DNA from: a virus
Direction: 5' to 3' (one strand)
Virus genome (UHGV): UHGV-0139776
DNA length: 64,000 nt
Shown here: positions 5,194 to 40,599 of the stretch, piece by piece
Layout of the letters: each line of letters opens with the position of its first letter
Position numbering within the stretch: position 1 is the stretch's first letter
The notes under the pieces: generated by a model
Database searches by the model: none
Seen by the model: the letters and a program-made list of their open reading frames with translations, nothing else
Told to the model about the DNA's origin: nothing
Program-made: the position numbers and the translations under genes

Positions 5194-8100
5194 TCAACTC
5201 TCGCGTAGTCATTCATCAACGGATCATCAATTGACAGTGGTACCGTGCGCATAACGCCCGGCTGAGGCGTGCTGACCTTTACGACAGTTCCCTGGCCTTT
5301 CGCCGAGTCTTTGGTGTGCTCTTCAATCCTGGCAAGCAATGAGGTCATCTGCGCAAACAGCCGCTTCGTTTCACCATCAAGTGAAACGGTATTATCAGCC
5401 AACTGCATTGTCGGCTTGGCACCGGAACCGCCAAGGTCACTAATAACCTGCCCGTCTATCTGCATACGACCGGTTGGTTGCTGCAAATCGTTGGCGGCAG
5501 TCGTCACCTGGGACGTGGAGGCTGGTTCAGGCGCATTATTTTTCCGCATCCCCGGCGAGTTGCGGAGTTTATCGAATAGTCCATCAATCCCCATTTGTGC
5601 GCCGAGTTGGTCAAAGTAACTTGAGTTGCTGGCCACCGGACGCGCCTCTTCAACTGGCATCGGAGTATCAACATACACATTGCCAGCTGCTGTTGCGGTC
5701 CCCTTCCCTCGTGCACGTTCTTCGAGCGTTCCCTGAACGACTTCCCGACGCATACCCCGGCCATTCATGAATTTGTTGACCAGATCGTTAACGCCAACAG
5801 CATTGCCGATTTTGTCTACCAGACCGCCTTTCTCAAACGGGCTATCACCAGGGGTAAACGCCAGACCAGTAGACTGATCGATAACGGCGTTATCAGGCAG
5901 TTGTCCCCTCACTCCATATTGCGCCCCACCCTGTGCTCCTGCCCCAGGTGTATAGATTTCACCACCTAAATAGCGAGCACGATGAGTATTGACCTTGATC
6001 GCGTACTCACGGTTTTCCTTCGATAAGTCACCGGTGCCTTTTTTCCACTTATTAATAGTGCCAAACCCAGCGTTATATGCAGTGATGGCCTCGTTTAAGT
6101 CTCCATTGGCTTGCTTCAGATACTTGCTCATGAGAAGAGCCGCAGCTTCTGCCGATTTCACAGGATCAAACGATTCACCTTCAGCTAAGCCAGTCTCTTC
6201 ACGAGCAATGCCCGTGAACTGAAACATTCCTAGAGCACCAGTTTGGGATTTTGCGTATGGATTACCACCAGATTCAGTTGCAGCAATCGCGTAAAGAGTG
6301 CCTTCAGGAAGACCATATTTATTCTCTAGTTCAGCAAAATACGGAGCTAACTTATCGAGATTTGCCTTACCTTCAGCGCCAAGGCTTCCGACTTTTACAT
6401 CTAAGTTGCCATTATTGTAGGTATCAGCAGCTTTCTGAATGTCATTCCCAGTGCCGGTGGTATTACGCGACGATGATGACGAGCTATTTTGTCCAATAGC
6501 TGAATCAATTTTCCGCACCGCGCTATTGCCCGTTTCTACGGCATTTGCATTGATAATCTGATTGGCAGTTTCTTTAACTGTTTTATTGCTATCTTTCGCC
6601 GTGTCCAGTGCCGCATTTATCACGCGGGTAGCAATATTAGTCTGTTTAGCATCGGATTCAGTTTTAGAATCAGATGTCTCCTGGTGGCTATTAACCGGAG
6701 CTTTTAACTCTGGAGTGATTTCTTTTGCATTAGCCTCGCCGATCGGATTGGGTATTTTTGATACAATCATTGCCGCTGGGGTATTTTTAACGGCATCAAC
6801 CGCTGCATCTAATGCTTTACCGGGTAAATTTTTAACCCCATCCCAAATATTACCAGCCGCCTCTTTAATGTGTTTCCCTGGGTTCTTAATGAAGTCAATT
6901 GCACTATCAATTGCATCACTGAAAACCTGTTTCAGGTTATCGACAGTAAAGAAGTCTTTTATGGCATCCAGCTTTTCAAGCAACTTATTAGATGTATCGC
7001 TAAACCATGCTGAAACAGCATCACCAATCTTTGCTGTGTAATCATCGAACTTGGTAGAAATGGTGTCGCCAAGGTTAGAAATATATGTTTCTAAGTTGGT
7101 AACCCCGCTATCAATGGCCTGGGCAATACTTTCCGTCGAAAATGATTGCAACATATTGCCGATATCCTCAAATCCAAGTGATTTGAGAACATCACCAATA
7201 GCACTGCTAATACCAGATACCAGTCCCCCCAAATCAAGAACATTGGCTAACGTATAAGCGGCTTTTTGCTGGAATGATGGATCTTGTCCTGATTTAAGCC
7301 CAAACGCTCGACGTTGCGCTTCTGTATCATTCCAACCGGTTACCGCATCATAAATACCTCCAGCCACTGTGCCGACTAGGGGAATTGCGCGTAACGCCCC
7401 TTTACCAACTGCCTTTAATCCAAGTTTACCTGCTGCCCGGGCAGCCAAATCTCCGCCTTCATGAGCGAGAGTCTTCTTGCCACCACCGCGTAGCATTCCT
7501 ACAAGTTTCTTTGCCCCCAGAGCGCCAAAAGCGAGTGCTCCAGCTTTTTTCAGCATGCCACGCCCCATTAACAACGACGCGACGCCACCGGCCCCCTTCC
7601 CTAACAGGCTAAATAGTTTGGACAGCAAGCCGCCCTTCTTTTTACCGGTGTTTTTGGCTATCTGATCAAGGGCGCGGAGAATCTTGTCATTGCCCTCTTT
7701 AATTTCGCTGGTCTGCTCCTGAAGTTCCTGAACCGTCCGTTTTTGGGTGTTAACCTGAACGACATCGGCACTATTTTGCGATTTACGCCTAAAAAAACCT
7801 TTTCTACGGCTGTTATCGTCATTGCCACGAATCACATCGGCAATAGACTTTCTGGCACCATTAAGCGATCCACCAACTTCTTTTGATATCCCGCCAAGCT
7901 CCTTCCCTGCTGCCCACAATGGACCAGCAACGGCATAACCTAACGCATCGACGGCACGAGTCTCTGAAGGGTTACCTATGCCTTCAGCTACTTTTGACAG
8001 TTTTTTTAATAAACCTGATTCAGCATTTAGACGCTCATCATCCTCTTTGCGCCTAGCCTTTTCAGCACGTTCAGCACGGGCATCTTCCGCTGCGGCCTTA

Positions 8101-19885: not shown

Positions 19886-21613
19886 TTACTCAGAGTCACC
19901 GGCATCAATCGTGTCGCCGCTTATGAAGTTAAGCCCGCCTTTTTTGGCCATTGTCAGCGTTACACGAGTGAAGTAATCAGCGCCGTTGCGTGGGTGCATA
20001 TCGTTGATAGCCGAACCCCACAGCGTGGTACGGTTGACCAGCGCCGGAGTGGTCGGATGCTGGAACGGGATGGCCGGGACAGCATCACCAGTCACGAAGC
20101 CTGCTTTACCTGGATTTTCATCACGGACGTAGCACAGCACATCCATCGAGCTGAACTGAATGTTCTCTGTCGTTAAGTTCTTACAAATACCAGCAGGTAC
20201 TTCGTACACTTTCACGTTACCGAACAGGGTACCGATGTAGTGAACATACGGAGTCTGGATATAGTCTTCGGCTGGCTGGAAGAAATCCTTCGGCAACTGT
20301 TTGAAGAAAGATGCTGCATCAGCACCAGCAAACATCCCCATCGCACCAGAAGATTTAACGCGCTCAATAATGTCGCGATATACAGTCTGGAATTTGCCAC
20401 GAATGATGGTTGCCCATACATCAAAGGACTGGTTAACCGGCAGAGCGATGTCAAAGGTGTCGGTCGCAAGAGTACGCCAGATCATGATGCGAAGACGCAG
20501 CATATCCTGTTCATGAGACAGGTATTCCTTCAGGGTGCGGAACTGTAGGGAACCCAGGTCCAGACCAAATTCACGCTGTGCTTCATACGCCGCCTGTACC
20601 GTGTGCTCAGCCGCGATAACGAACTGGCTTGGGAACAGGGTGTATTTCTTCATTTCGTGGTTGATCAGCGGGATCAGCTCAGGAGCGGCTTCAATATTGA
20701 TTTCCGTCTCAATTGCGATCTCAGTGCCTTTATCCGGCGCTTTGGAGAACGACAGGGCAATCTGACCAATGTTGTAGTTCAGAGAGCAGGTAACAGTGAT
20801 TTGCTCACCAGCAGCATTAGTAAACGAGTGAAGTAGGCTGCCGGAACCGTTATCAACAACAGACTTAATACGGTTAACGTAGATGTTAGTGCGACCTTTT
20901 CGGATTGGTACATTCTGGCCTTCGAAGTCTTCCATCTTGAAGGTTGCGGTTTTGCTGGTGCCATCGGAGCTTGCCACCAGCACATAGCGGCGGCGTAACT
21001 GGCTGTACACACCGACGGATTGCATGTCCAGAACATCACCAGCAGCATAAGAACCAAAAGAGGAACCTGCCACGTTAAAGACTTCATAGATGTCGGACTG
21101 GTCACGCGTAACCGGAATGAAGGTACACGCATCAGCGGTAGCTGCCCCCAACTGAACAGGCAGGATCATCGCGAGGAATAAAGGCAGACGCATAACACCG
21201 TCAGAAACGCTCATCATCTCTGCTGCGACAGATTCCAGCATCGCTTTATTAGTGGCATCCATGCTGTTGCGGGTGGACTCAATCAGGCAGTTTTCCAGCG
21301 TCTGGTGGCAGGAGGCCAGAATTTCCGGACGCGGCATAGATTTATGTGCTGCGGCGTAGTCAGCCAGTGCACTTGCCCACGCTGTAGCGATTTGAGCGGT
21401 GGCATTATCAGAGATACCCGCAAAAACCGGGTCTTTACGTGCAGCTTCAAGGATAGATGCGGCACGCGCGGCATCATCTTTAATGAATTGGTTATCAGTA
21501 CCGAACTGCGCAGTGCTTGCCCAGCCAAGCACAGCTTTAGAGCGTTTTGCGATATCTGCAATACGATTCTGGTATTCGCGTAAGTTACTCAATTTACTCT
21601 TCCTTAAACACAA
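19886..21613 (-). CDS. putative major head protein precursor, 575 aa (start uncertain)
   Basis: The ORF-track start is a TTG without a Shine-Dalgarno; internal ATGs exist. Adjacent to parB as I recall for P1 gene 23. Confidence 0.4.
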   Translation of the reverse strand: MCLRKSKLSNLREYQNRIADIAKRSKAVLGWASTAQFGTDNQFIKDDAARAASILEAARKDPVFAGISDNATAQIATAWASALADYAAAHKSMPRPEILASCHQTLENCLIESTRNSMDATNKAMLESVAAEMMSVSDGVMRLPLFLAMILPVQLGAATADACTFIPVTRDQSDIYEVFNVAGSSFGSYAAGDVLDMQSVGVYSQLRRRYVLVASSDGTSKTATFKMEDFEGQNVPIRKGRTNIYVNRIKSVVDNGSGSLLHSFTNAAGEQITVTCSLNYNIGQIALSFSKAPDKGTEIAIETEINIEAAPELIPLINHEMKKYTLFPSQFVIAAEHTVQAAYEAQREFGLDLGSLQFRTLKEYLSHEQDMLRLRIMIWRTLATDTFDIALPVNQSFDVWATIIRGKFQTVYRDIIERVKSSGAMGMFAGADAASFFKQLPKDFFQPAEDYIQTPYVHYIGTLFGNVKVYEVPAGICKNLTTENIQFSSMDVLCYVRDENPGKAGFVTGDAVPAIPFQHPTTPALVNRTTLWGSAINDMHPRNGADYFTRVTLTMAKKGGLNFISGDTIDAGDSE

Positions 21614-21649: not shown

Positions 21650-21790
21650 TTGAAAGTCACTTGTTGACTTTCTCGTGACAAGCAATTTTTTTATTTTTTT
21701 CGGGAGTAGGGGAGGAAGGTAAAATCCAAGGTGAAATCGTGGCGATTTCACCTTGAAATTTTAGATGGATTTACTTTAAAAACAGTAGGT
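21650..21790. promoter_or_regulatory. parS: parS centromere: palindrome CAAGGTGAAATCG-TGG-CGATTTCACCTTG (21727-21755) with ATTTCAC (box A) and TCGCCA (box B) motifs
   Basis: Lies immediately downstream of parB; heptamer/hexamer boxes match the P1 parS organisation from memory. Confidence 0.75.
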
Positions 21791-25777: not shown

Positions 25778-26179
25778 TTAGTTGTCGTTTTCCGTACCTA
25801 CTTCTTCGATCAACAAACTACTTGTATAGATGCGTAACGTATCACCTTTGTAGAGGAATTGATAACCAACACCTCCTATGGCAGGGAGGTCGGGGAACAT
25901 TTCAGAAGCAACCCCAGAGCAAATCACGGCGATACAGTCATCCCGCTGTACATCCTTACGCTCTGTACTCAAAGTTTGCTCTTCCCCGATTGCCTTTGTC
26001 ATCTCCTCATCTTCGTACGCAACAGGGATATATTCAATCGCATCAGGCGTTTTGATACCCAGTTCTTCAGCAATCTCGAACGCCTGTTTAAATTGATCTG
26101 ACCCAGGATATCCAACGGTAATACTCTCAATTTCGAACAAAGAAGTAGCGTTGTTTATTTCTTGTTTAACCGCAAACAT
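25778..26179 (-). CDS. hypothetical acidic protein, 133 aa
   Basis: ORF only. Confidence 0.4.
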   Translation of the reverse strand: MFAVKQEINNATSLFEIESITVGYPGSDQFKQAFEIAEELGIKTPDAIEYIPVAYEDEEMTKAIGEEQTLSTERKDVQRDDCIAVICSGVASEMFPDLPAIGGVGYQFLYKGDTLRIYTSSLLIEEVGTENDN

Positions 26180-26620: not shown

Positions 26621-26872
26621 TTAGTTACCGCTGATAGCGCGGTTGTAATCATTAACGTTGCGATTCTTCCTGTTAATCCCCATCAGCATCGTTTCTGTAT
26701 CGAGGATATACGCTGGCAGATCATCAAAATATTCACTGCTAAACTCTGGCATTCTGCACATAAATGCACTTTTGGGGGCAGGGTGGTTAACCTTTGTCGG
26801 CGTCGGCGTTAAATTCGCTGATCGACTCCCGGAGCAACCGCTGAGTGTCAGCAGGAATGCGCTGGCGAACAT
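26621..26872 (-). CDS. outer-membrane lipoprotein, o-spanin (Rz1-like) candidate
   Basis: Lipobox LTLSGC; proline-containing mature part; its start lies inside the 3-prime end of the upstream coiled-coil gene in another frame. Confidence 0.5.
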   Translation of the reverse strand: MFASAFLLTLSGCSGSRSANLTPTPTKVNHPAPKSAFMCRMPEFSSEYFDDLPAYILDTETMLMGINRKNRNVNDYNRAISGN

Positions 26873-27209
26873 TACCCGCCGCAACCAGTTGTTTCTGAAC
26901 TTCAGCTTTTCGTTCCATTTGCCTGTCAGCATATTTGGCTTGTTCTGATTCATTTTTCACTTCCTGGCTGTGAAAATGTTGATCTGCTTTGTTCATCGTC
27001 TCAATGGTCTGGTTAAGATCCATTATTGACTTATCACGTTCCTTAACAGCCTGATCAAGACTGCCAATTTTATCCAAGGCTTGCTTTAGCTGATGACGTT
27101 CCCATGCAAACCCGGCACCAACAAGTGCGCAAATCAGAACAAGAACACCAGTAGCAGCAAGTTTCTCCTTCAAAGACAAAGCTGTTTTTAACGTAGAAAA
27201 GAATGACAT
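26787..27209 (-). CDS. N-terminal-TM coiled-coil protein, i-spanin (Rz-like) candidate
   Basis: Start ATG at 27209 with an AGGAGG RBS; TMD VLVLICALVGAGFAW; C-terminal VAAGNVRQRI resembles lambda Rz VAAGRRRLHI. Confidence 0.5.
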   Translation of the reverse strand: MSFFSTLKTALSLKEKLAATGVLVLICALVGAGFAWERHQLKQALDKIGSLDQAVKERDKSIMDLNQTIETMNKADQHFHSQEVKNESEQAKYADRQMERKAEVQKQLVAAGNVRQRIPADTQRLLRESISEFNADADKG

Positions 27210-27248
27210 GTCTTCCTCCTGAAGAAAAATTATCAATGAAGTCCTTTG

Positions 27249-28037
27249 TTACTGTGCCGCTTTGTTTAATTCATCAAGAACAGAATCAGGAACCAAAGCA
27301 GCAACTGCGCTGGCTGTGCTGGCCTTATTTGCTGATGCTTCCGCAAGCGCAGTACCGATAGCATGGTTATAAGCAGTTATGGCTACATTGGCGCTTTCAT
27401 TCGCTCGTTCATACTGCTGTTGTAACGCAGTTGTGGGCGCTGTTGTCTGGTTGAAAACAACCCCAAACTGTTCAGTTGCTACTTTCAGAGATTCAATTTG
27501 CTCTTCTGTTAGTGCTGGTGGGGGAGTGGCAGTGCCGCCGCCTGAACCAGAGCCTGGCGAGCTTCCTGAGCCAGTGTTAAGGGTCTGGTTAATCTCCCCC
27601 ATTGCAGCGACTAAACTTGATGTATTAAGCGCGTTAACAGCGTCCTCAAGCGATTTAGTAATATTCACATCACCAATGGCAATAGAGATCGGCAGTTCTG
27701 AAACTTCTCGCTCATTAGCACGGCAGTAAACATCCCAACCAATATCGAGTTGAAGCAGCATTGACAGATCTGCATAACCAGCCAACAGGTCCGCGTGCTT
27801 AGTTGCCAGTTCTCCAATGTTCGTTAAGCCGGTTGTGGTTGTTCTGATCGTTGAAACATAGCTGGTAATAGTGTCGGGATAGACAATTGTATCCAGAATT
27901 AATCCGGTCAATTCTTCTGCAAGCAGTTTTGCTGTGTTAGCACTGTTTCGTGCCGATGTTATGGCACCAGGTGTTTTCATCCCACCGGCGGCGGCCAATT
28001 TTTTATATGCGGATAACTGGTAGTCTTTTTCCAGCAT
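27249..28037 (-). CDS. hypothetical protein, 262 aa, translationally coupled to the PAAR-like gene
   Basis: Start ATG at 28037 with a GGAG RBS overlapping the upstream stop; Gly/Ser-rich linker. Confidence 0.4.
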   Translation of the reverse strand: MLEKDYQLSAYKKLAAAGGMKTPGAITSARNSANTAKLLAEELTGLILDTIVYPDTITSYVSTIRTTTTGLTNIGELATKHADLLAGYADLSMLLQLDIGWDVYCRANEREVSELPISIAIGDVNITKSLEDAVNALNTSSLVAAMGEINQTLNTGSGSSPGSGSGGGTATPPPALTEEQIESLKVATEQFGVVFNQTTAPTTALQQQYERANESANVAITAYNHAIGTALAEASANKASTASAVAALVPDSVLDELNKAAQ

Positions 28038-28045
28038 GATATCTC

Positions 28046-28330
28046 CTAACTTACCTGAACCAGGCCGTCTCCGGACGCTACGGTAGATCCGCATGAAACA
28101 GGGTCACCAACGCATACGATCCCTTTACCATTGACGGTAAACCATGCCCTGGTTGATATAGCTTGCCCACCGTGCGTACTGTTTCCATCGGTATGCTGTG
28201 CATATTGCTTACCATCAACTAACACTTCGACTCCGTTGACTTTAAGTAGTGGTTCACTCTCTACAGGAGCCCTGGATGGGAATCCTCCGTGCCCCGAACA
28301 AATGCTGTCTTTTGTTGCAATACTTGCCAC
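28046..28330 (-). CDS. PAAR-like repeat protein (spike-tip candidate), 94 aa
   Basis: Repeated SGHGG / VNG / VGDPVSCG elements resembling PAAR motifs. Confidence 0.45.
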   Translation of the reverse strand: MASIATKDSICSGHGGFPSRAPVESEPLLKVNGVEVLVDGKQYAQHTDGNSTHGGQAISTRAWFTVNGKGIVCVGDPVSCGSTVASGDGLVQVS

Positions 28331-28411
28331 GTCATCACCAATTATTTGCTCTGATTTTCGTTATTTTAATTCAGGTTGTTTGTGGTCTACATGGAGTTCA
28401 ACTATTGCAAA

Positions 28412-28428
28412 ATTGCTCTAATAAATAT
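28412..28428 (+). promoter_or_regulatory. C1 operator-like site (16/17) with overlapping promoter (TTGCTC-N17-TATGTC)
   Basis: Motif match upstream of the uhr-hrdC-dmt block. Confidence 0.6.
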
Positions 28429-28499
28429 TGTTTTTTATGTCGTATTTTCGGTACCATTCAGCCATCGCCCTTCAATGGGCATTTGTTTGGAGTCGTCAG

Positions 28500-28784
28500 A
28501 TGCAGATGGAGCTAATAAGCCGCAAAGAGTTCGATAGCCGTGTAACCAGCGGTGAACTCGACAACTTGCAGGCTATCAAGGTGAAAGAAGGCTTTTGCCT
28601 CATTGGGAATCAGAGCGGAACAAATCGCGTTTTTATGCTTCGCCGTACGGATTTGAAGCCATTTGTCTGGAAGAACGAAATTGGTCCCAGCTCATACGCT
28701 CAAACGAGGGGGTGCCACAACCTGGCCTTTTTCTACAAAGACGAGCTTTCTGTGGTTGATATTCAAGGGTTACAACATGTTTAA
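28500..28784 (+). CDS. small protein upstream of hrdC, about 94 aa
   Basis: Start ATG at 28500 with a GGAG RBS; the earlier in-frame ATG would overlap the operator. Confidence 0.4.
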
Positions 28785-29682
28785 GCACTGGAAAAACATT
28801 ACTATTTATAAACTTTCTCGTGAGGCGGATCTGACCGACTTAGAAGATAAAAAGAAAATGATCCTTTTCACGCCATGCGGTAGTCAGGATATGGCTAAGT
28901 TCGGTTTTGTATCGCCATTTGGTGATAATTCCGAAGTTATCGCTATGCATGGAAATGGTTTTATCCTTGTTGAAGCAAAGCGCGAAACAAAAATTCTTCC
29001 CCCGCCGGTTATCCAGCGAGCTATTCAAGAAAAAATTGAAAAACTTGAGCAAGAACAAGCGCGTAAACTGAAGAAAACAGAGAAGGACTCCCTGAAAGAC
29101 GAAGTTCTGCATTCTCTTCTGCCACGGGCTTTTTCAAAGTTTTCTGTTATCCAGGCGATCTACGACGGTTCAACTAAACGTATCTATATCAATGCCAGCG
29201 CGCGGCAGGCAGAGGATATGCTCGCGCTTATGCGTAAGTCTCTTGGTTCTCTTCCTGTTGTTCCCCTGAGTGTTGAAAATCCCATTGAATTAACGCTGAC
29301 CGACTGGGTACGTGATGGTAGTGCTCCACAGGGATTTCAAATGGGGGATGCGGCAGAACTTAAGGCAGTGCTTGAGGATGGCGGTATTGCCCGAGTGAAA
29401 AAGCAGGATTTGGGAAGCGATGAAATTTCCACACACCTGGAAGCTGGCAAGCTCGTCACTAAGTTGGCACTCGACTGGCAGAACCGCATTAAATTTACAC
29501 TGGACCATAACTTCAGCCTTACCAGCGTCAAATTTGCGGATGAATTGCTTGAGCAGAACTCTGATATTGATAGTGAAGATGTTGCGCAGCGACTGGACGC
29601 AGATTTCTTCCTGTTAACCAGTGAAATTTCGTGCCTGGTTGATGCTCTGGTAAATGCCCTTGGTGGAGAGGCTAAGCAGTGA
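28777..29682 (+). CDS. hrdC: RdgC-like recombination-associated protein, about 301 aa
   Basis: N-terminus [16 protein letters not shown] resembles E. coli RdgC (MLWFKNLMVYRLSRE). Confidence 0.7.
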
Positions 29683-31943
29683 AAGAGCTGTGCTATGGAT
29701 CTGTTTGCAGTGGAATTGAAGCCGCGAGTATTGCCTGGGAACCGTTGGGTATGCGTCCGGCGTGGTTTGCTGAAATCGAGCCTTTTCCATCTGCCGTTCT
29801 TGCGCACCGCTGGCCCCATGTCGCCAACCTTGGCGACATGACAAAACTTGCCAAAAAAGTCCTGGCTGGGGAAATCGAATCCCCTGATGTGCTCGTCGGG
29901 GGAACACCTTGTCAGGCATTCAGTATCGCGGGCTTACGTGGTGGGCTTGATGATGAACGCGGCGCGCTAACTTTGAAGTATGTGGAGCTTGCAAATGCAA
30001 TTGACGACAAACGGTCTGAGTCCTTCCTCAAACCGACAGTTATCGTCTGGGAAAATGTCCCAGGAGTCCTGTCATCGGCAGATAACGCCTTCGGATGTTT
30101 CCTTGCCGGATTGGCTGGAGAAGATGCGCCATTTGAACCAGGTGATCGACCTGAATCAGGAAAAAGTAACGCGTTCTGGCGGTGGGATGGCAAAACCGGT
30201 TGCCATGCTCCAAAGTGGCCGCAGTGTGGTTGTATTTATGGACCGCAGCGAAAGGTGGCCTGGAGAATCCTTGATGCCCAATACTTCGGAGTGGCACAAC
30301 GACGCCGACGCGTGTTTGTTGTCGCAAGTGCTCGAACAGACCTCGATCCCGCAACGGTACTTTTTGAGTTCGAAGGCGTGCGCCGGGATATTGCGCCGAG
30401 CCGAAAAAAGAAGGAAATCGCTTCCGCCATTATTGCAAATGGCGCTGCAATCAGTGGCGAAAGCCTAAATCCATGCCTACACGCTGACATTCCACCCGGT
30501 ATGAAATCGACGAAAGCCGTAAACGCTTTCAGGATGGCAGCATTTGGGGAATATATTGACGATGAAACCGCATCGACAGTAAAGGCAAGAGATTTTAAAG
30601 ATGCCACTGACCTTGCCGTTTTTAGCAGCACAGGAGCAGGTTTTTGGTCAGAAGGGCATGGTACATTGCGGGCACGTGAGCAAGAAAGCCATGAGCATCT
30701 TGTTACATTGGCTTTTCCTGAGCGTATGAGCGGTACACAACATGCTGCAACTAAGAATACTTCACCATCTCTAATGGCTAAAAATCCAACAGCTGTTTGC
30801 TATGAAGTAAGAAACGCAGAAGTAGCTGTCCGCCGTCTTACCCCTGTCGAATGTGAAAGGCTGCAAGGTTTTCCTGATGGGCATACGTTGATCCCGACGG
30901 AAAAGCGTAAAAAAGTTAATTCAGATGAACTGGCATATCTTCGCAATCACTATCCAGATTTAAGCGAAGAAGAGGCCGCGATGCTTGCAGCTGACGGACC
31001 GCGTTACAAAGCGATCGGCAATAGTATGGCAATACCAGTAATGCGCTGGATTGGCGATCGGATTACTAAGGCCGTATGTCGGCAGAAAGAAGGAAGTAAA
31101 ACAAAAGAGCGAAAAGTTAAACCAGCGGCAGAATTCGAACGGTCCATATTCAAATGGGCTGGTGGAAAATTTGGTGTTCTGGAACAAATCTTTCGCTATT
31201 TGCCAGAAGGGAAGCGCCTGATTGAACCTTTCGTTGGTGGCGGAGCTGTCTTCATGAATGCCGGATACCAGGAAAATCTGCTAAATGATGTGAATGCTGA
31301 CCTGATTAACTTTTACAAGACTCTGCAACGCGAGGCGCATTCACTTATCACTCTGGCACATCGTTTCTTCCAGGACTACAACACACAGGAAGGATACCTG
31401 GCAGTACGGAATGCGTTTAACAAACAAGTCTATGATGATTTACATCGCGCAGCGGCGTTTTTGTTCCTGAACCGACATTGTTTTAACGGATTGACGCGTT
31501 ACAACCAGGCCGGTGAGTTCAATGTCGGTTATGGGAAGTATAAAACTCCGTATTTCCCATTACAGGAGATGGAAGCCTTCCTCGGTGCGGAAGGGCGGTC
31601 TGAGTTTGTATGCGGTGATTTTGCAGTGGTGATTGAAGCTGCCGGAGAAGGAGATGTCATCTTTTGCGATCCGCCGTATGAACCGCTTCCAAATACAGAG
31701 GGATTCACGAACTATTCCGGTCATGACTTTAAGTTTGAAGAGCAAAAACGCCTGGTGTCTCTGTTGACGGATGCTCATCGTCGAGGTGCAAAGGTTCTCA
31801 TTACTAACAGTGGCGCGCCAAATATCAGAGAGCTTTATCATGACAGTGGCTTCAGAGTGGAACCTCTTTTTGCCAGACGTTCTGTGTCTTGTAAGGGGGA
31901 CACTCGAGGTGTAGCTCATGACGTTTTAGGTATATTGCTCTAA
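29679..31943 (+). CDS. dmt: bifunctional DNA methyltransferase: N-terminal C5-cytosine MTase fused to C-terminal Dam-like N6-adenine MTase, 754 aa
   Basis: C5 motifs: GGTPCQAFS (IV), ENVPGVL (VI), QRRRRVFVV (VIII); Dam motifs: KWAGGK and CDPPYEP. Confidence 0.85.
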
Positions 31944-31964
31944 TAAATTTATTAGTGTAATATC
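31934..31964 (+). promoter_or_regulatory. perfect C1 operator (ATTGCTCTAATAAATTT) overlapping a near-consensus promoter (TTGCTC-N17-TAATAT)
   Basis: 17/17 operator match; -35 and -10 hexamers with 17-nt spacing. Confidence 0.65.
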
Positions 31965-31970
31965 GCCTCA

Positions 31971-32151
31971 ATGAATCGTGATTTATAGAGCGATTTAGCT
32001 GTTAGCCGCGACAGGCGCGGCGGTAAGCATGGCTGGGCCTAGTCCTCCCAGACAAACCACCGAGTTGCCAGGTTGACCATGCGCCTAAGTGGCAACTCCG
32101 AAGTGCGTTACGAGCTTCCAGTTTGCCCATCTTCGGGTGGGCGTTTTTTTT
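31971..32151 (+). ncRNA. candidate small RNA or leader transcript: promoter to UUCG-tetraloop terminator with no credible ORF
   Basis: Longest ATG-initiated ORFs that stop before the terminator encode 5 and 15 aa; bounded by the promoter at 31936-31964 and the terminator at 32125-32151. Confidence 0.3.
32125..32151 (+). terminator. rho-independent terminator (7-bp stem, UUCG loop, T8 run)
   Basis: GCCCATC-TTCG-GGTGGGC followed by GTTTTTTTT. Confidence 0.75.
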
Positions 32152-32327
32152 CAGGGTTTTCGTCATGGTTAGCGACTTTGCGGCGGTTTAGAAACTGACC
32201 ATTAAAGTAAATGCAAACGATGATCTGATGATGGTAGCGGCCTAAGAAGCCAGACGCCACGGGGTATGAGTCGTCCCCCGTCAAAAAATCGACCGCAGAG
32301 TGTCCCCGTCTGTGTATTAGGGAACGG

Positions 32328-32425
32328 GGAGACACAACAGGTAAGGGCGCTGGTGTGATTAACCAGATGAACGAGAAGGGGCCATCTGTTGGTCAGCGTC
32401 CTTTCCTGTTGCGTTTTCTTTTCAG
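32328..32425 (+). repeat. long imperfect hairpin, unit 0 of the ACAACAGGTAAGGG...CCTTTCCTGTTG family
   Basis: 5-prime arm CAACAGGTAAGGGCGCTGG pairs with TCAGCGTCCTTTCCTGTTG; followed by a T-rich tract. Confidence 0.5.
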
Positions 32426-32616
32426 CGTAACAGCGGTGCTTAACAGCACTTTGGGTACAGTTCCACGAATTTACGGGTATATCCCGTCATGCTGAAAGCG
32501 CTAATCACGCTGGAAGCCAGGGTTATGCATCCCCTGTTACCGAATTGCAGCCAGGGCGCGGTGCGCCGAAAAGCATACGGAGGTGGAAGCCCTCGCCGGA
32601 GACGTGCCCGGCAAGT

Positions 32617-32692
32617 GATGGTGTAGCTCAGCGGTTAGAGCGGTTGACTGTTAATCAACGGGTCGATGGTTCAAATCCATCCACCATCGCCA
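32617..32692 (+). tRNA. tRNA-Asn (anticodon GUU)
   Basis: Cloverleaf: acceptor GATGGTG/CACCATC, anticodon loop CUGUUAA, T-arm GGTTCAAATCC, encoded CCA. Confidence 0.85.
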
Positions 32693-32694
32693 AT

Positions 32695-32770
32695 GCCGGT
32701 TTAGCTCAGTTGGTAGAGCGCCTGCCTTGTAAGCAGGATGTCAGCGGTTCGAGTCCGTTAATCGGCACCA
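32695..32770 (+). tRNA. tRNA-Thr (anticodon UGU)
   Basis: Acceptor GCCGGTT/AATCGGC, anticodon loop CUUGUAA, T-arm GGTTCGAGTCC, encoded CCA. Confidence 0.85.
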
Positions 32771-33575
32771 GCACAACAGGTAAGGGTATTTTGCGACGTC
32801 GGAGATCGCCGAGCTTGGCAGAGGGTTCGAATCCCTACGAAGTACCCTTACCGTTGTGATGAATGCGCAGGCTGATGCGCGAAAGACATTGCAGCTATTG
32901 CGGAAAAGAGCTGTTCGGCGGGGCAATTAAACGCCCGTGAGAGTCTGAAATAACCGCAAGCCGGAGATCAGCACCGGTCATCACAACACAACAGGTAAGG
33001 GCATTCTCCCTTATGGGGCTTGGCTTAAATGCATCGAGTGCTCTTACCGTTGTGATGAAGTGCAGCTCTTTGAAGCAACCAGAAGATAAGCATCTGGCTT
33101 CACAACATAAACCGCAGGAACGACCAATAAACGGTAGTCCGTATGGAGAACACCCCGTTGAGGAAGAGGCCTGGCCGGAACCGTAACCGGCACTACAACG
33201 TTGAGAACACTGGCGTAACGGGGTCATATCCCAATCTACGAATAAATGTTGCGTTGCAGCGTGACAACCAGTGTTCTCAACATTGTGGTGAATGCACAGG
33301 CTGATGTGCCGCAACTACAGTAGTGCGCGCTTTGCGGGGCTTGCTACAACCCTGTGTCGGAGTTCAGCACCGACCATCACAGTTTGATTCTCTGGCATGA
33401 GCATAACGCTGAAATAAGTCCAGTCTGGTGCGGCCCGATCACCCGCCGTTAGCTCCACGAAACGGAGCACGTAACAGGTAAGAGCATTCTCCTGTAACGG
33501 GTTCATATCCCAATCTACAGGTCCACCAGGAATGCTCTTTCCGTTGCGGTGAATGCGGCTAAGCGCACGCGGAAC
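32771..33575 (+). repeat. array of four structured hairpin units (about 32776-32880, 32990-33066, 33194-33312, 33470-33572), each a long stem plus GTTGTGATGAATGC-type tail and short hairpin
   Basis: Conserved stem bases ACAACAGGTAAGRG / CTTACCGTTGTG, variable interiors, compensatory changes in the 3-prime mini-hairpin (GCGCA..TGCGC versus GCACA..TGTGC); unit 1 contains a T-arm-like GGGTTCGAATCCC. Confidence 0.5.
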
Positions 33576-33697
33576 AGTTAAAACAATCCTCCTTAATGGT
33601 TAAACATTCCGACGTTAATTGTTAACTGGTTAACGTCACCGGGAGGCACTCGGCACCGCAATCTAATAAATATGTCACTTTTATTGAGGGATAACCA

Positions 33698-34132
33698 ATG
33701 TTCGGTAAATTGTTCGGCAAGAAAGTCGCTTCTGCAAAAGTAGAGCTGAAAAAAGTTGAGAATCGCGATCTGATGGAGGCCATCATCGGTGGCTGTTTGT
33801 TGGTGTCTGCCGCTGATGGTGAAATCGAAAAAGAAGAAACAGCGAAACTTGATCAGCTTGTCCGCTCTAATCCGCGTCTTAGTCATTTTGGTAACGAAAT
33901 TACTGCAACAATTACCCGCTTTACCGAGCAACTGGAAGCTGGCTTCCGTGTTGGTCGCATGAATATCCTTCGCGAAATTGAAGATATCAAAAACGATCCA
34001 AAAGAAGCGGAAGAAGTATTCGTTAACATGCTGACAATTGCAGAAGCGGACGGTGAAATCGAGCCAGCAGAACACAAAGTACTGGAAGAAGTAGGCCGTC
34101 GTTTAGGTCTTCGTGTGGAAGATTATCTGTAA
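33698..34132 (+). CDS. tciA: TerB-like protein, 144 aa
   Basis: TerB-like duplicated motif (AADGEIEKEE ... AEADGEIEPAE). Confidence 0.65.
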   Translation: MFGKLFGKKVASAKVELKKVENRDLMEAIIGGCLLVSAADGEIEKEETAKLDQLVRSNPRLSHFGNEITATITRFTEQLEAGFRVGRMNILREIEDIKNDPKEAEEVFVNMLTIAEADGEIEPAEHKVLEEVGRRLGLRVEDYL

Positions 34133-34296
34133 TGGCAAGCAAGGCACGTATCGCAATCGCCATTGGTTTTCTCTTGCTGTCCGTGCTGGTGGATTTCACC
34201 AGCACAATCCTGTCAGTTTTATCGGACGGGGCGTTGGTGGCAGTAGCTGTAACATTGGTATGGCCGATATTAAAAACAGCTTCTAAGGATCAGTGA
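34132..34296 (+). CDS. small membrane protein, 54 aa
   Basis: ATG overlaps the tciA stop; hydrophobic. Confidence 0.4.
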   Translation: MASKARIAIAIGFLLLSVLVDFTSTILSVLSDGALVAVAVTLVWPILKTASKDQ

Positions 34297-34403
34297 TGGG
34301 CTTCTGGGATTTTGCTGACAAGCATCCAATTGTTCTCGTTGTCATTGCTGGCATAGTTGTAGGCGGTATTGCTGGCGTCATAGAAGCACTCAGGAAACAG
34401 TAA
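34296..34403 (+). CDS. small membrane protein, 35 aa
   Basis: Start overlaps the upstream stop; single TM segment IVLVVIAGIVVGGIAGVI. Confidence 0.35.
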   Translation: MGFWDFADKHPIVLVVIAGIVVGGIAGVIEALRKQ

Positions 34404-34406
34404 TCC

Positions 34407-34482
34407 GGCCCTTTAGCTCAGTGGTTAGAGCTGGCGACTCATAATCGCACGGTCACCGGTTCAAGTCCGGTAGGGGCCACCA
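34407..34482 (+). tRNA. tRNA with CAU anticodon (Met or lysidine-modified Ile)
   Basis: Acceptor GGCCCTT/AGGGGCC, anticodon loop CUCAUAA, T-arm GGTTCAAGTCC, encoded CCA. Confidence 0.8.
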
Positions 34483-34762
34483 TATTTGGTTGTAACACGG
34501 CGTCTGGCACATGCGTCGTTAGCGGTCTGGTGACGTTAAAAGGGGGGAACCTTGCCCCTAGCTCAGGCAACGAACCAGGTAGCCGGAATGTGCAAGCCAC
34601 CGTTTGTTGTTTCTCGGGTAAAGGGATTCACCATCCTGGCGATTCGGTGTGACAGCCGGGAAGAGTCCGGCGCATTAATCCTGATTTTCTGGTGATGACT
34701 CATATCGTTAGGAGTGATTTGAGTATGCCGATTATATCTGACATTCAGCACGCCTGGGTGGA

Positions 34763-36133
34763 GTGCTAATGTCTGCATCCCCTCTTGAATCCATGCCAAA
34801 TTCCCTTAGTGCAGAACAAGCTGTACTTGGTGGCTTAATGCTTGATAACTGCCGCTGGGATGAAGTTGCAGATCGTATAGTTGCTGATGATTTTTATACC
34901 AGTGCTCATCGTGAAATTTTCAGTGAGATGGAGAGGTTATTAAGTCATGGCAAACCGATTGATTTGATAACACTTGCTGAAGCACTTGAACAGAACGGTA
35001 AATTAGAACGCGCCGGTGGTTTTGCGTACCTTGCGGAGATGTCAAAGAACACGCCCAGCGCGGCAAATATTTGTGCTTATGCGGATATCGTTCGTGAACG
35101 CGCGGTCGTTCGTGAAATGATTTCCGTCGCAAATGAAATAGCCGAAGCTGGATATGCGCAGGATGGCAGGGGCAGCAATGAATTGCTGGATATGGCCGAG
35201 CGCCGCGTTTTTGAAATAGCTGAAAAACGACAAAAGAGCGGTAGTGGTCCAAAAGATATCGCCAGCATTCTCGATGCAACGGTATCTCGCATAGAAGAGT
35301 TGTTTCAGCGACCACATGATGGTGTAACGGGGCTTGATACGGGATTTACCGATCTCAATAAGAAGACGGCAGGGCTTCAGCCGTCCGATCTCATCATTGT
35401 CGCCGCCCGCCCATCTATGGGGAAGACCACGTTTGCGATGAATCTCGTCGAAAATGCCGCAGTCCGTAACTATAAGCCCGTATTGGTTTTTAGCCTTGAG
35501 ATGCCGAGCCACCAGCTGATGATGCGCTCACTGGCTTCTCTTGCACGCGTTGATCAGACTCGTATTCGAACAGGGCAACTTAACGACGAGGATTGGGCGC
35601 GGGTTTCTGGCGCAATGGGGATTCTGTTGGACAAGCAAAATATTTTTATTGATGACTCAAGCGCCCTGACACCTACAGAGCTTCGTTCCCGCGCTCGTCG
35701 TGTTTATAAAGAAAATGGTGGTTTGAGCATGATTATGATCGACTACCTGCAACTTATGCGCGTCCCCGAGCTGCAAGATAACCGAACGCTGGAAATTGCC
35801 GAGATTTCTCGCTCACTGAAGGCTTTGGCGAAGGAATTACAAGTACCGGTGGTGGCATTGTCACAACTTAATCGTTCACTTGAACAGCGTGCGGACAAAC
35901 GACCGGTAAATTCAGATTTACGTGAATCAGGAGCAATTGAGCAGGACGCAGACCTGATCATGTTTCTGTATCGCGACGAAGTTTATCACCCGGATAGCGA
36001 AATGAAGGGCATTGCCGAGGTGATTATCGGTAAGCAACGAAATGGCCCAATTGGCACGGTGAGATTGGCTTTTAACGGCCAATACTCACGGTTTGATAAC
36101 TATGCTGGTGCTGACTGGCAAGAGGATTATTGA
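34763..36133 (+). CDS. ban: DnaB-family replicative helicase, 456 aa
   Basis: Walker A ARPSMGKTTFA; DnaB N-terminal and RecA-like C-terminal motif order. Confidence 0.9.
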   Translation: MLMSASPLESMPNSLSAEQAVLGGLMLDNCRWDEVADRIVADDFYTSAHREIFSEMERLLSHGKPIDLITLAEALEQNGKLERAGGFAYLAEMSKNTPSAANICAYADIVRERAVVREMISVANEIAEAGYAQDGRGSNELLDMAERRVFEIAEKRQKSGSGPKDIASILDATVSRIEELFQRPHDGVTGLDTGFTDLNKKTAGLQPSDLIIVAARPSMGKTTFAMNLVENAAVRNYKPVLVFSLEMPSHQLMMRSLASLARVDQTRIRTGQLNDEDWARVSGAMGILLDKQNIFIDDSSALTPTELRSRARRVYKENGGLSMIMIDYLQLMRVPELQDNRTLEIAEISRSLKALAKELQVPVVALSQLNRSLEQRADKRPVNSDLRESGAIEQDADLIMFLYRDEVYHPDSEMKGIAEVIIGKQRNGPIGTVRLAFNGQYSRFDNYAGADWQEDY

Positions 36134-36435
36134 TGCAACGGAAACTAACTAAGCGTAATAAAAATTGGTTGAGCGACATGCTGAAAAAAGCCAATCGCAA
36201 CCATATGTACCTCAACGACTGGCTATCAATTAAAGGTAATCTCAGTGATGCAAAAATGATCGACAGACATGTTGCGCGCTATGGTGTTTCACTTGTCTTA
36301 GAAAAGGCTGAATTAGTATTTTCGGAATATTATTCCATTCCGCAAATTAGCTCCAAAGGAAAAATATGTGGCTATGTGCTCAAACATAAAAGCAAGCTGG
36401 ATGAGCTTTTAGTCAGGGAAAAGGAGACGCAATGA
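36130..36435 (+). CDS. hypothetical protein downstream of ban, 101 aa
   Basis: Translationally coupled ORF. Confidence 0.45.
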   Translation: MMQRKLTKRNKNWLSDMLKKANRNHMYLNDWLSIKGNLSDAKMIDRHVARYGVSLVLEKAELVFSEYYSIPQISSKGKICGYVLKHKSKLDELLVREKETQ

Positions 36436-37406
36436 ACATCCTGATCATTGGGCGAAAATTTGAAGCTATCAGTGATGTGAAAACATATACGGAAATGTGG
36501 GCTTACAACCTGGCCTGCGCCTTTAGTGAGGCTGGGGTAACATTGCAATACCATCGTCCATATTCCCCTGGCGTCGAAAGCCCCGAGGATTATGTTGAAG
36601 CTGTGTTGACTGCTGCGACAGCATGTTCTGCGAAGGCCATTTTGGCACCAGGATTGAGGTATTTTACTACGGTACCCAGGGAAATAGGCATGCAACTGTG
36701 TCGCCGATTCTCTGGATGGGTAGCCCAGGTATATGACGGTTCTATGCTGGATTCGGCACCAGTCGATATTACTTTTACTGTCCGCGATGATACCTGGCGG
36801 TACCTGGATAATCCCGGTCGGTTAGAACGTCATAATCGCTTTAACAAACATGTTGGATGGGCAGCGAATCAGGAGCTGTTCCATCTGGAAACCAAAACGG
36901 ACGATGTTCTGCGTATTTTTGTAGACCACGCTGCATTTGATGTTAGTGGTTTTGATCACTCCTTAAGTATCCTTATGAACCTTCAGCGTCTGACCGTTCC
37001 GTATGAGGCCAGAACGTTGACTGATGACGGATTGGTTACCATTGATCCGGGGAATATTTCGGTAACTCCATACAGGCGGACGCCGGTGCCAGCAACCGAA
37101 TTTGCAGCTGAATTGCGTAAGAGTGACGTTTTTATCGTTACGCATCCCGAAAGCCTTGGATTAACTGTACTTGAGGCGGCAATGTGCGGGGCGTTGGTAT
37201 TAACGCCTCCCGATTGCCTTCCGCCAGATCGCCTGGCTTTGGTGAACCATATGGTTATCAAGTCGCGGATTGATTGGGATGAGGTTATTGCTCGCGTTGA
37301 TCGCGTGAAAAATGCTGAAAAGGTCCAGTGTCACACCTGGTCGGCAATTGCGGAAAAGATGCTTGAGACGTTTATCACGCAGAAACCGTCGTGCGGTAAC
37401 GGATAA
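36432..37406 (+). CDS. GT-B-fold glycosyltransferase-like protein, 324 aa
   Basis: C-terminal HPESLGLTVLEAAMCGALVL resembles the EX7E motif of GT1/GT4 enzymes. Confidence 0.5.
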   Translation: MNILIIGRKFEAISDVKTYTEMWAYNLACAFSEAGVTLQYHRPYSPGVESPEDYVEAVLTAATACSAKAILAPGLRYFTTVPREIGMQLCRRFSGWVAQVYDGSMLDSAPVDITFTVRDDTWRYLDNPGRLERHNRFNKHVGWAANQELFHLETKTDDVLRIFVDHAAFDVSGFDHSLSILMNLQRLTVPYEARTLTDDGLVTIDPGNISVTPYRRTPVPATEFAAELRKSDVFIVTHPESLGLTVLEAAMCGALVLTPPDCLPPDRLALVNHMVIKSRIDWDEVIARVDRVKNAEKVQCHTWSAIAEKMLETFITQKPSCGNG

Positions 37407-37424
37407 AAAATTGAACCCGTCATA

Positions 37425-37452
37425 ACAGAAAAGCCCGAACGCCGGGCTTTTC
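37425..37452. terminator. bidirectional rho-independent terminator between convergent operons
   Basis: Stem AGCCCG/CGGGCT flanked by A-run and T-run. Confidence 0.6.

Positions 37453-40599
<3,147 letters not shown>

Follow-up and report, generated by a model that had tools for sequence, protein, structure and literature searches.

The locus is the upfC-upfB tip module of a P1-like phage-plasmid

In the 64,000-nucleotide stretch of the virus genome UHGV-0139776 that was analysed here (the window), two adjacent genes of the minus strand occupy positions 27,249 to 28,330: an open reading frame (ORF) of 94 amino acids (aa), described in a preliminary reading of the DNA as a PAAR-type spike tip, and a 262-aa downstream partner. 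The window proved to be that of a P1-like phage-plasmid. The 1.8 kb around the two genes share 94.9-98.5% DNA identity with P1-group phages; the closest record is phage vB_EcoM-Ro157c2YLVW (98.5%), several P1 isolates reach 97-98% and reference P1 94.9%. The flanking ORFs correspond to P1 ParA, RepA and the 754-aa methyltransferase Dmt. In the P1 record, the 94-aa ORF is named upfC (P1_gp066) and its partner upfB (P1_gp065), with ppfA, mlp and upfA downstream of upfB, and with the divergent C1-controlled Pdmt promoter followed by uhr, hrdC and dmt upstream of upfC.

When compared with the P1 reference proteins (PDB 9vyi and 9vzk; PMC12810830), UpfC and UpfB of the window were 98% and about 91% identical, respectively, and the neighbours ppfA, mlp, uhr, hrdC and dmt were common to both genomes. 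The window differs from reference P1 as an allelic variant, the synonymous divergence across upfC-upfB being about 0.2. The locus is the P1 upfC-upfB tip module: the feature is real, the reading first given to it was right, and it is already in the literature. We regard the whole reading, in which upfC and upfB encode the PAAR tip and a tip-bound partner of a P1-type phage-plasmid, as very probable.

UpfC has the fold and the ligands of a PAAR tip

In order to establish whether UpfC is a PAAR protein, the Pfam family PF05488 and the structures of Shneider et al. 2013 were taken as criteria. The repeat elements noticed in the 94-aa ORF are present: SGHGG at residues 12-16, STHGG at 51-55, VNG at 31-33 and again at 66-68, and VGDPVSCG, once, at 74-81. 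The Pfam PAAR_motif profile (PF05488) matched UpfC with an E-value of 6.5e-6 and 26.7 bits, slightly under the gathering score of 27.0, and precomputed hits of the same profile were found on most of the 94-aa UpfC homologues. PHROG 281 ('PAAR motif') matched at 4.8e-30. With the NCBIfam T6SS_PAAR equivalog, UpfC scored 34.9 bits, the cut-off being 124.

A phmmer search of the PDB showed that 92 of the 94 residues are identical to the cryo-electron microscopy (cryo-EM) chain 9vyi_A, named UpfC. The other matches were the PAAR protein of phage KP1 (9f4b_BA), T4 gp5.4 (5iv5 and 4ku0; E 5.5e-8) and Vibrio VCA0105 (4jiv; 3.4e-3). Furthermore, structure prediction with AlphaFold2 gave a PAAR fold, made of beta strands only, with a mean predicted local distance difference test (pLDDT) score of 95.7. 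When this model was submitted to Foldseek, the template modelling (TM) scores were 0.95 with 9vyi, 0.92 with 9f4b_BA, 0.90 with 4jiw_D, 0.88 with 4jiv_D and 0.85 with 4ku0_D. Residues H14, H46, H53 and C80 align with the His/His/His/Cys set of gp5.4, KP1 PAAR and VCA0105, and do not vary among 18 distinct UpfC homologues or in alignment A6. This set, at the vertex of the cone, is a putative metal site that probably stabilises the protein. The solved structures, the predicted fold and the invariant ligands bear out the identification of a PAAR-type spike tip.

The same identity had been reached earlier for P1. The upfC note of the P1 record mentions 31% identity to T4 ORF5.4, Gonzales et al. 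2022 (PMC9024508) predicted UpfC as a gp5.4-like tip by HHpred, and in the 2026 cryo-EM study (PMC12810830) UpfC was built on the gp5 trimer.

Many 94-aa PAAR proteins of the UpfC type (P0141-P0193 in our set) carry the NCBI name 'alanine racemase', and the KP1 chain 9f4b_BA is named 'Phospholipase'. Both names look like propagated misannotations.

UpfB is an all-helical protein with a corrected start

The partner of UpfC was found as described, a 262-aa protein with a Gly/Ser-rich linker (TGSGSSPGSGSGGGT, residues 155-169) that begins with the ATG at 28037. A longer version of 281 aa, starting at 28094 inside upfC, stands in the ORF list as well as in the RefSeq and GenBank records of P1 (extra segment 28038..28094). 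The UpfB homologues are about 240-265 aa long and all begin with ML[D/E/N]; the phrog_1559 profile aligned with residues 1-262 of UpfB over positions 1-263 of its 263 (1.4e-137); and a strong ribosome-binding site was found solely in front of the start at 28037. Given the homologue lengths, the PHROG 1559 profile and the ribosome-binding site, the 262-aa form is the better model. The RefSeq start is thus probably too far upstream, and the corrected start is a new output of the present analysis.

The AlphaFold2 model of UpfB (pLDDT 82, predicted TM score 0.76) is all-helical. Its helices form long hairpins, and its linker is disordered, the pLDDT falling below 50 at residues 158-169. In the homologue alignment A1 the linker is an indel-prone region of variable length and forms the least conserved block of the family. 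The protein is acidic (isoelectric point 4.5), and Ala, Thr and Leu are abundant in it. It contains no segment hydrophobic enough to span a membrane, the best 19-residue hydropathy window remaining below 1.0, and searches for a signal peptide or for a match to a lysis family were likewise negative. No sequence relatives of UpfB were found in Pfam, NCBIfam or the PDB, and a fold search returned generic helical-bundle matches with no structural analogue.

Family alignments A1 and A2 highlighted a conserved N-terminal motif, ML[DEN]xxxQxxAFxxLxxxGG. Conservation peaks at residues 1-23, 91-107 (xSxLxQxxIGWD), 141-150, 221-230 and 241-250. An exhaustive profile search of 1.84 billion proteins led to 89 family representatives at 50% clustering, nearly all of them full-length single-domain proteins of 240-265 aa. 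The named carriers are P1, P7, SJ46, RCS47, JK004 and D6. Matches to a D6-type member occur in 719 PLSDB plasmids, almost exclusively from Enterobacterales, and a distant subgroup is found in Vibrio and Photobacterium, on plasmids of 80-140 kb that are non-mobilizable. Judging from this distribution of homologues, UpfB is confined to the P1-like lineage.

The T2 protein gp5.1, a proposed partner of gp5.4, was also considered. Homology of UpfB to T4/T2 gp5.1 was ruled out, the UpfB family profile and T2 gp5.1 giving a probability of 0.05% in hhalign; the two proteins are unrelated.

upfC and upfB are translationally coupled and have evolved together

Direct reading of the sequence at the upfC/upfB junction confirmed the translational coupling proposed in the preliminary description. 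The junction reads GTAAGT-TAG-GAGATATC-ATG. The upfC stop codon TAG (28048..28046) forms the first half of the Shine-Dalgarno sequence TAGGAG, and 8 nucleotides (nt) separate the stop from the upfB ATG.

Conservation of this arrangement was followed in 26 IMG/VR loci, from enterobacterial relatives, that contain a UpfB homologue (identity to the subgroup query down to 29%). A UpfC homologue lies directly upstream of the upfB homologue in every one of them. These upstream proteins belong to the 94-aa class, two raw ORFs being longer (105 and 130 aa). In 25 loci one base is shared by the stop and the start codon (TAATG or TGATG), and in the remaining one the genes abut; a Shine-Dalgarno-like GAGGT or CAGGTG is found within the last upfC codons of these relatives. 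The adjacency and the overlapping codons in the enterobacterial relatives are reported here for the first time.

The pairwise identities of UpfC and UpfB are correlated (r = 0.89), and UpfB is the less conserved of the two in 350 of 351 pairs, with a mean identity of 43% against 68% for UpfC. Between the window and P1, the ratio of non-synonymous to synonymous divergence (dN/dS) is 0.044 for upfC and 0.24 for upfB. By these comparisons of sequences, UpfB evolves faster than UpfC. Our comparative results strengthen the case for UpfB as a dedicated tip partner.

Origin of the distance between the spike gene and the tip genes

A gpV-like spike gene had been noticed elsewhere in the window, and it was indeed found on the minus strand, 9.1 kb from the tip gene. 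Its product is P1 gp5, as it matched PDB 9vzk_q ('Gp5') over residues 1-210 with an E-value of 1.5e-136. The ORFs of the interval are mostly on the plus strand and include, by the names of the P1 record, an RdgC-like gene, a methyltransferase and a DnaB-type helicase. Since most of them are on the opposite strand, the spike gene stands in a separate transcription unit from upfC-upfB, again as first described. The insert contains uhr, hrdC, dmt and ban, then an ORF that stands where P1 has dbn and, after it, a 324-aa ORF. We take the P1 record to place the tRNA/plp/upl/tci stretch in this insert as well.

The 324-aa ORF (36432..37406, plus strand) adjoins gene 5 on the opposite strand and gave weak matches to glycosyltransferase group 1 (E 1.5e-5, under the Pfam cut-off). 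Possibly it is one of the accessory genes of the variable spike-to-tip interval.

To trace how the interval arose, the neighbours found in related loci were mapped onto the window. A single co-oriented order emerged throughout: hub (gp6), spike (gp5), a variable insert often containing hrdC and dmt, UpfC and UpfB. UpfB is followed by lysis genes, a plasmid replication module or both, and next by the counterpart of a 575-aa window ORF (19886..21613), which stands at the position of the P1 major capsid gene 23, and the sheath gene. Gene 6, whose product is named as the hub in PMC12810830, has homologues that precede the spike homologue in all related loci. The length of the spike-to-tip interval varies widely. 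On a Vibrio alginolyticus plasmid (L033), in which the UpfB homologue was recognized with an hhalign probability of 99.9%, the hub, spike, PAAR and UpfB genes are contiguous and the gap between spike and tip is 8 nt. The interval is about 165 nt in L028, 1.8 kb in L023, 3.9 kb in L024 and 5.5 kb in the D6-like locus L002, and reaches 9.1 kb in the window. These variable intervals imply that the P1 tip genes remain in the ancestral position and that accessory DNA has accumulated between spike and tip. By this comparison of gene orders, the ancestral order is hub-spike-PAAR-UpfB and the 9-kb gap of P1 is inserted accessory DNA, which had not been described before.

In two exceptional loci an insert separates the PAAR gene from the UpfB gene; it measures about 3 kb in L028 and consists of two genes in the Photobacterium locus L034. 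In L028, an 87-kb viral contig, the insert includes a DNA methyltransferase gene whose stop codon overlaps the UpfB start. The PAAR gene of the same contig (4662..4944) lies in two frames, as would be expected if 2 nt had been lost from a CACAC run, and could be a pseudogene or the product of a sequencing error. In L034 (Photobacterium damselae plasmid p1_510), the two genes at 5842..6945 are hypothetical, one of them giving a weak SLATT-like (two-transmembrane effector) match (E 3e-4, under the cut-off).

A P2-like baseplate module (L029) resembles the window in that a 94-aa PAAR protein, about 41% identical to UpfC, is encoded directly after the gpV spike gene. Unlike in the window, the PAAR gene is followed by the baseplate genes gpW/gpJ and there is no UpfB-like gene. 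As a PAAR protein of the UpfC type occurs there without UpfB, UpfB is an addition specific to the P1-like lineage.

Table 1. Features of the upfC-upfB locus and of the associated spike and hub genes in the window
Feature	Position	Strand	Remarks
upfC, 94-aa PAAR-type spike tip protein	28046..28330	minus	GTG start, TAG stop
upfB, 262-aa all-alpha partner, two helical parts and Gly/Ser linker	27249..28037	minus	phrog_1559
Coupling junction upfC/upfB	28035..28049	minus	direct sequence reading
UpfB Gly/Ser linker codons (residues 155-169, TGSGSSPGSGSGGGT)	27531..27575	minus	pLDDT and alignment
Gene 5, trimeric beta-helical spike	37453..38085	minus	PDB 9vzk_q match
Gene 6, baseplate hub, directly upstream of gene 5	38078..39094	minus	synteny and PMC12810830
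Variable accessory insert between spike gene and tip gene	28331..37452	.	ORFs; gene names from P1 record
ppfA/mlp, overlapping Rz/Rz1-type spanin pair (context, outside the tip device)	26621..27209	minus	PHROG

Genes downstream of upfB

The spanin genes ppfA and mlp begin 39 nt downstream of upfB and matched PHROG Rz-like spanin profiles at 2.6e-24 and 2.2e-77. Their original labels are 'possible periplasmic function' and 'membrane lipoprotein', and the two genes overlap like an Rz/Rz1 pair. The proximity of these spanins, and the presence of spanin-like or endolysin genes after the UpfB homologues of many relatives, could suggest that UpfB belongs with the downstream lysis cassette, made of spanins in P1 and of a GH108 endolysin in the Vibrio relative, and not with the tail tip. 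In most relatives, however, the tight coupling is conserved with the upstream PAAR gene and there is none of this kind with the lysis genes. UpfB also lacks a signal peptide and a transmembrane segment and matches no lysis family, and the cryo-EM assignment places it at the tip. A lysis role was rejected on the ground that it is the PAAR gene, and not the lysis genes, with which coupling is conserved, and we find it scarcely credible.

The synonymous divergence from reference P1 amounts to 0.18-0.22 in upfC and upfB and to 0.015-0.04 in ppfA, repA and parA. This step points to a recombination (mosaic) boundary just downstream of upfB, at about 27210..27250 (upfB/ppfA). Further downstream, a 133-aa ORF on the minus strand (25778..26179) overlaps the plasmid origin oriR, whose position was transferred from the P1 record by a coordinate offset; it probably does not represent a gene.

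Location of UpfB in the virion

The location of the two proteins in the virion was published by others. In PMC12810830, a medium-resolution 'tripod' density on the tip was assigned to UpfB by fitting an AlphaFold 3 model, and a role in membrane piercing was speculated. A later report (PMC13611949) described three UpfB copies on UpfC.

Several observations weigh against UpfB as a tip-bound partner. The tripod assignment consists of an AlphaFold 3 model in a medium-resolution density, and the two reports conflict in stoichiometry, with three UpfB trimers in PMC12810830 versus three copies in PMC13611949. UpfB was not among the 27 proteins detected by liquid chromatography-tandem mass spectrometry (LC-MS/MS) in purified P1 virions (PMC9024508). 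The protein is predicted to yield about nine tryptic peptides observable by mass spectrometry (MS), with DYQLSAYK, TTTTGLTNIGELATK, EVSELPISIAIGDVNITK and ASTASAVAALVPDSVLDELNK as candidate targets; its absence is therefore not an artefact of peptide chemistry. Nine UpfB copies would equal the abundance of the hub gp6, which was detected by LC-MS/MS. The same experiment (PMC9024508) also missed gp5, gp26, PmgA and UpfC, which are genuine low-copy baseplate proteins. We draw attention to this discrepancy between cryo-EM, which places UpfB on the tip, and virion proteomics, in which it is missing.

In addition, in-frame deletions of upfC and of upfB caused no plaquing defect (PMC9024508, Gonzales et al. 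2022), and by CRISPR interference (PMC10695390, Piya et al. 2023) both genes were non-essential, with an efficiency of plating (EOP) of about 1, and gene 5 was essential (EOP <2.1e-6). Neither deletion has thus revealed a function.

Finally, no promoter was identified upstream of upfC. A late-promoter box of the Lpa type (pattern AAGTNACTT) was absent from positions 28331-28600, even when one mismatch was allowed; in the whole window this pattern has five exact matches. In P1 the -22 box of the late promoter LP23 reads AAGTGACTT; the corresponding box of the window, upstream of gene 23, reads AAGTCACTT and is located at 21654. The sole sigma-70-like match upstream of upfC is weak (28369..28341, minus strand). 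The region 28331..28600 also holds the divergent C1-controlled Pdmt promoter and its operator.

The proteomic result would be accounted for if UpfB were an assembly factor or a chaperone-adaptor for the PAAR tip, absent from mature particles or sub-stoichiometric in them: the protein is missing from the virion proteome despite suitable peptides, the coupling of its gene with the tip gene is tight, and its all-helical structure bears no sign of an enzyme. On the other hand, the UpfB model fits the published tip density, the same MS analysis missed gp5, gp26, PmgA and UpfC, and the deletion mutant of upfB plates normally, which indicates that UpfB is not needed for an infectious particle, although upfC is equally dispensable. 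We judge an assembly factor to be very unlikely. In T6SS (type VI secretion system) loci, adaptor genes adjoin the PAAR/VgrG genes and are comparable in role to such a chaperone-adaptor.

Comparison with other spike tips

T4 gp5.4 on the gp5 spike (PDB 4ku0 and 5iv5) is closely similar to UpfC: each is a single PAAR cone, 94-97 aa long, that caps a trimeric beta-helix, the His3-Cys positions are the same, and both proteins have been reported as non-essential. The two phages differ in that the P1 spike has no lysozyme domain and T4 has no UpfB.

The PAAR proteins of T6SS (VCA0105, 4jiv; c1882, 4jiw) have the same fold as UpfC (TM 0.88-0.90) and likewise form a cone, on a spike, that is able to carry an extra component. 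In contrast with the PAAR-effector systems of T6SS, the context here is a phage-plasmid with no T6SS genes. The preliminary description had likened the pair to a tip-plus-cargo arrangement. The dedicated downstream partner stands, in view of the conserved adjacency, the coupling and the tripod of the literature. The cargo part is unproven, as UpfB has no toxin or enzyme domain and no immunity-like partner, and its deletion has no phenotype. When the pair was compared with the 'tip plus cargo' systems of T6SS, UpfC was found to be a bare 94-aa PAAR protein, no toxin domain was found in UpfB and no immunity gene accompanied it, the downstream genes being spanins.

It could nevertheless be imagined that UpfB is a true cargo or effector, delivered on the PAAR tip to the periplasm or the membrane ahead of the DNA, where it would itself be active, for instance in forming or priming a channel or against an envelope-associated defence. 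This is unlikely, in our estimate, since UpfB shows no toxin, enzyme or transmembrane signature and no structural analogue, the locus has no immunity-like gene, the downstream genes being spanins, and neither deletion nor knock-down has a phenotype.

Proposed role of the pair and its significance

The reading that we favour, a PAAR tip with a tip-bound partner, suggests the following course. A single copy of the UpfC cone would cap the spike, a beta-helical trimer of gp5, at its blunt end, as reported by cryo-EM for P1 and as gp5.4 does in T4, and would sharpen the membrane-piercing device of the tail. UpfB, a lineage-specific, acidic and all-helical protein of 27 kDa, would be made from the upfC mRNA by translational coupling. 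Multiple copies of it would most likely bind to the faces of the cone and make up the published 'tripod', the most distal part of the tail. In evolutionary terms the upfC-upfB pair belongs to the hub-spike module and has been split from gene 5 in P1 by about 9 kb of inserted accessory genes. Both proteins are accessory for plaque formation on laboratory E. coli. As for its role, we infer that UpfB may modulate the first contact with the envelope or the passage through it, and that it may be shed or carried into the periplasm upon sheath contraction.

A more specific proposal, which we consider possible but rather doubtful, is that UpfB is a fast-evolving, detachable tip protein that enters the envelope ahead of the DNA and has a conditional function, such as penetrating particular envelope types or countering a barrier. 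If so, UpfB would be the phage counterpart of the PAAR-borne cargo of T6SS, and a function invisible on laboratory E. coli K-12 would explain the missing deletion phenotype.

A contractile tail crosses the bacterial envelope tip first. P1 is a standard phage for transduction and the prototype of a large phage-plasmid family, of which many members are carried by clinical Enterobacterales. The present analysis provides a corrected upfB start and explains in evolutionary terms why the tip genes stand at an odd position in the genome. PAAR tips as such are textbook knowledge; the point of interest is that a lineage extending from E. coli to Vibrio keeps a rapidly evolving helical tip partner that is dispensable in the laboratory. 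Explaining why UpfB is retained could reveal a host-range or penetration accessory.

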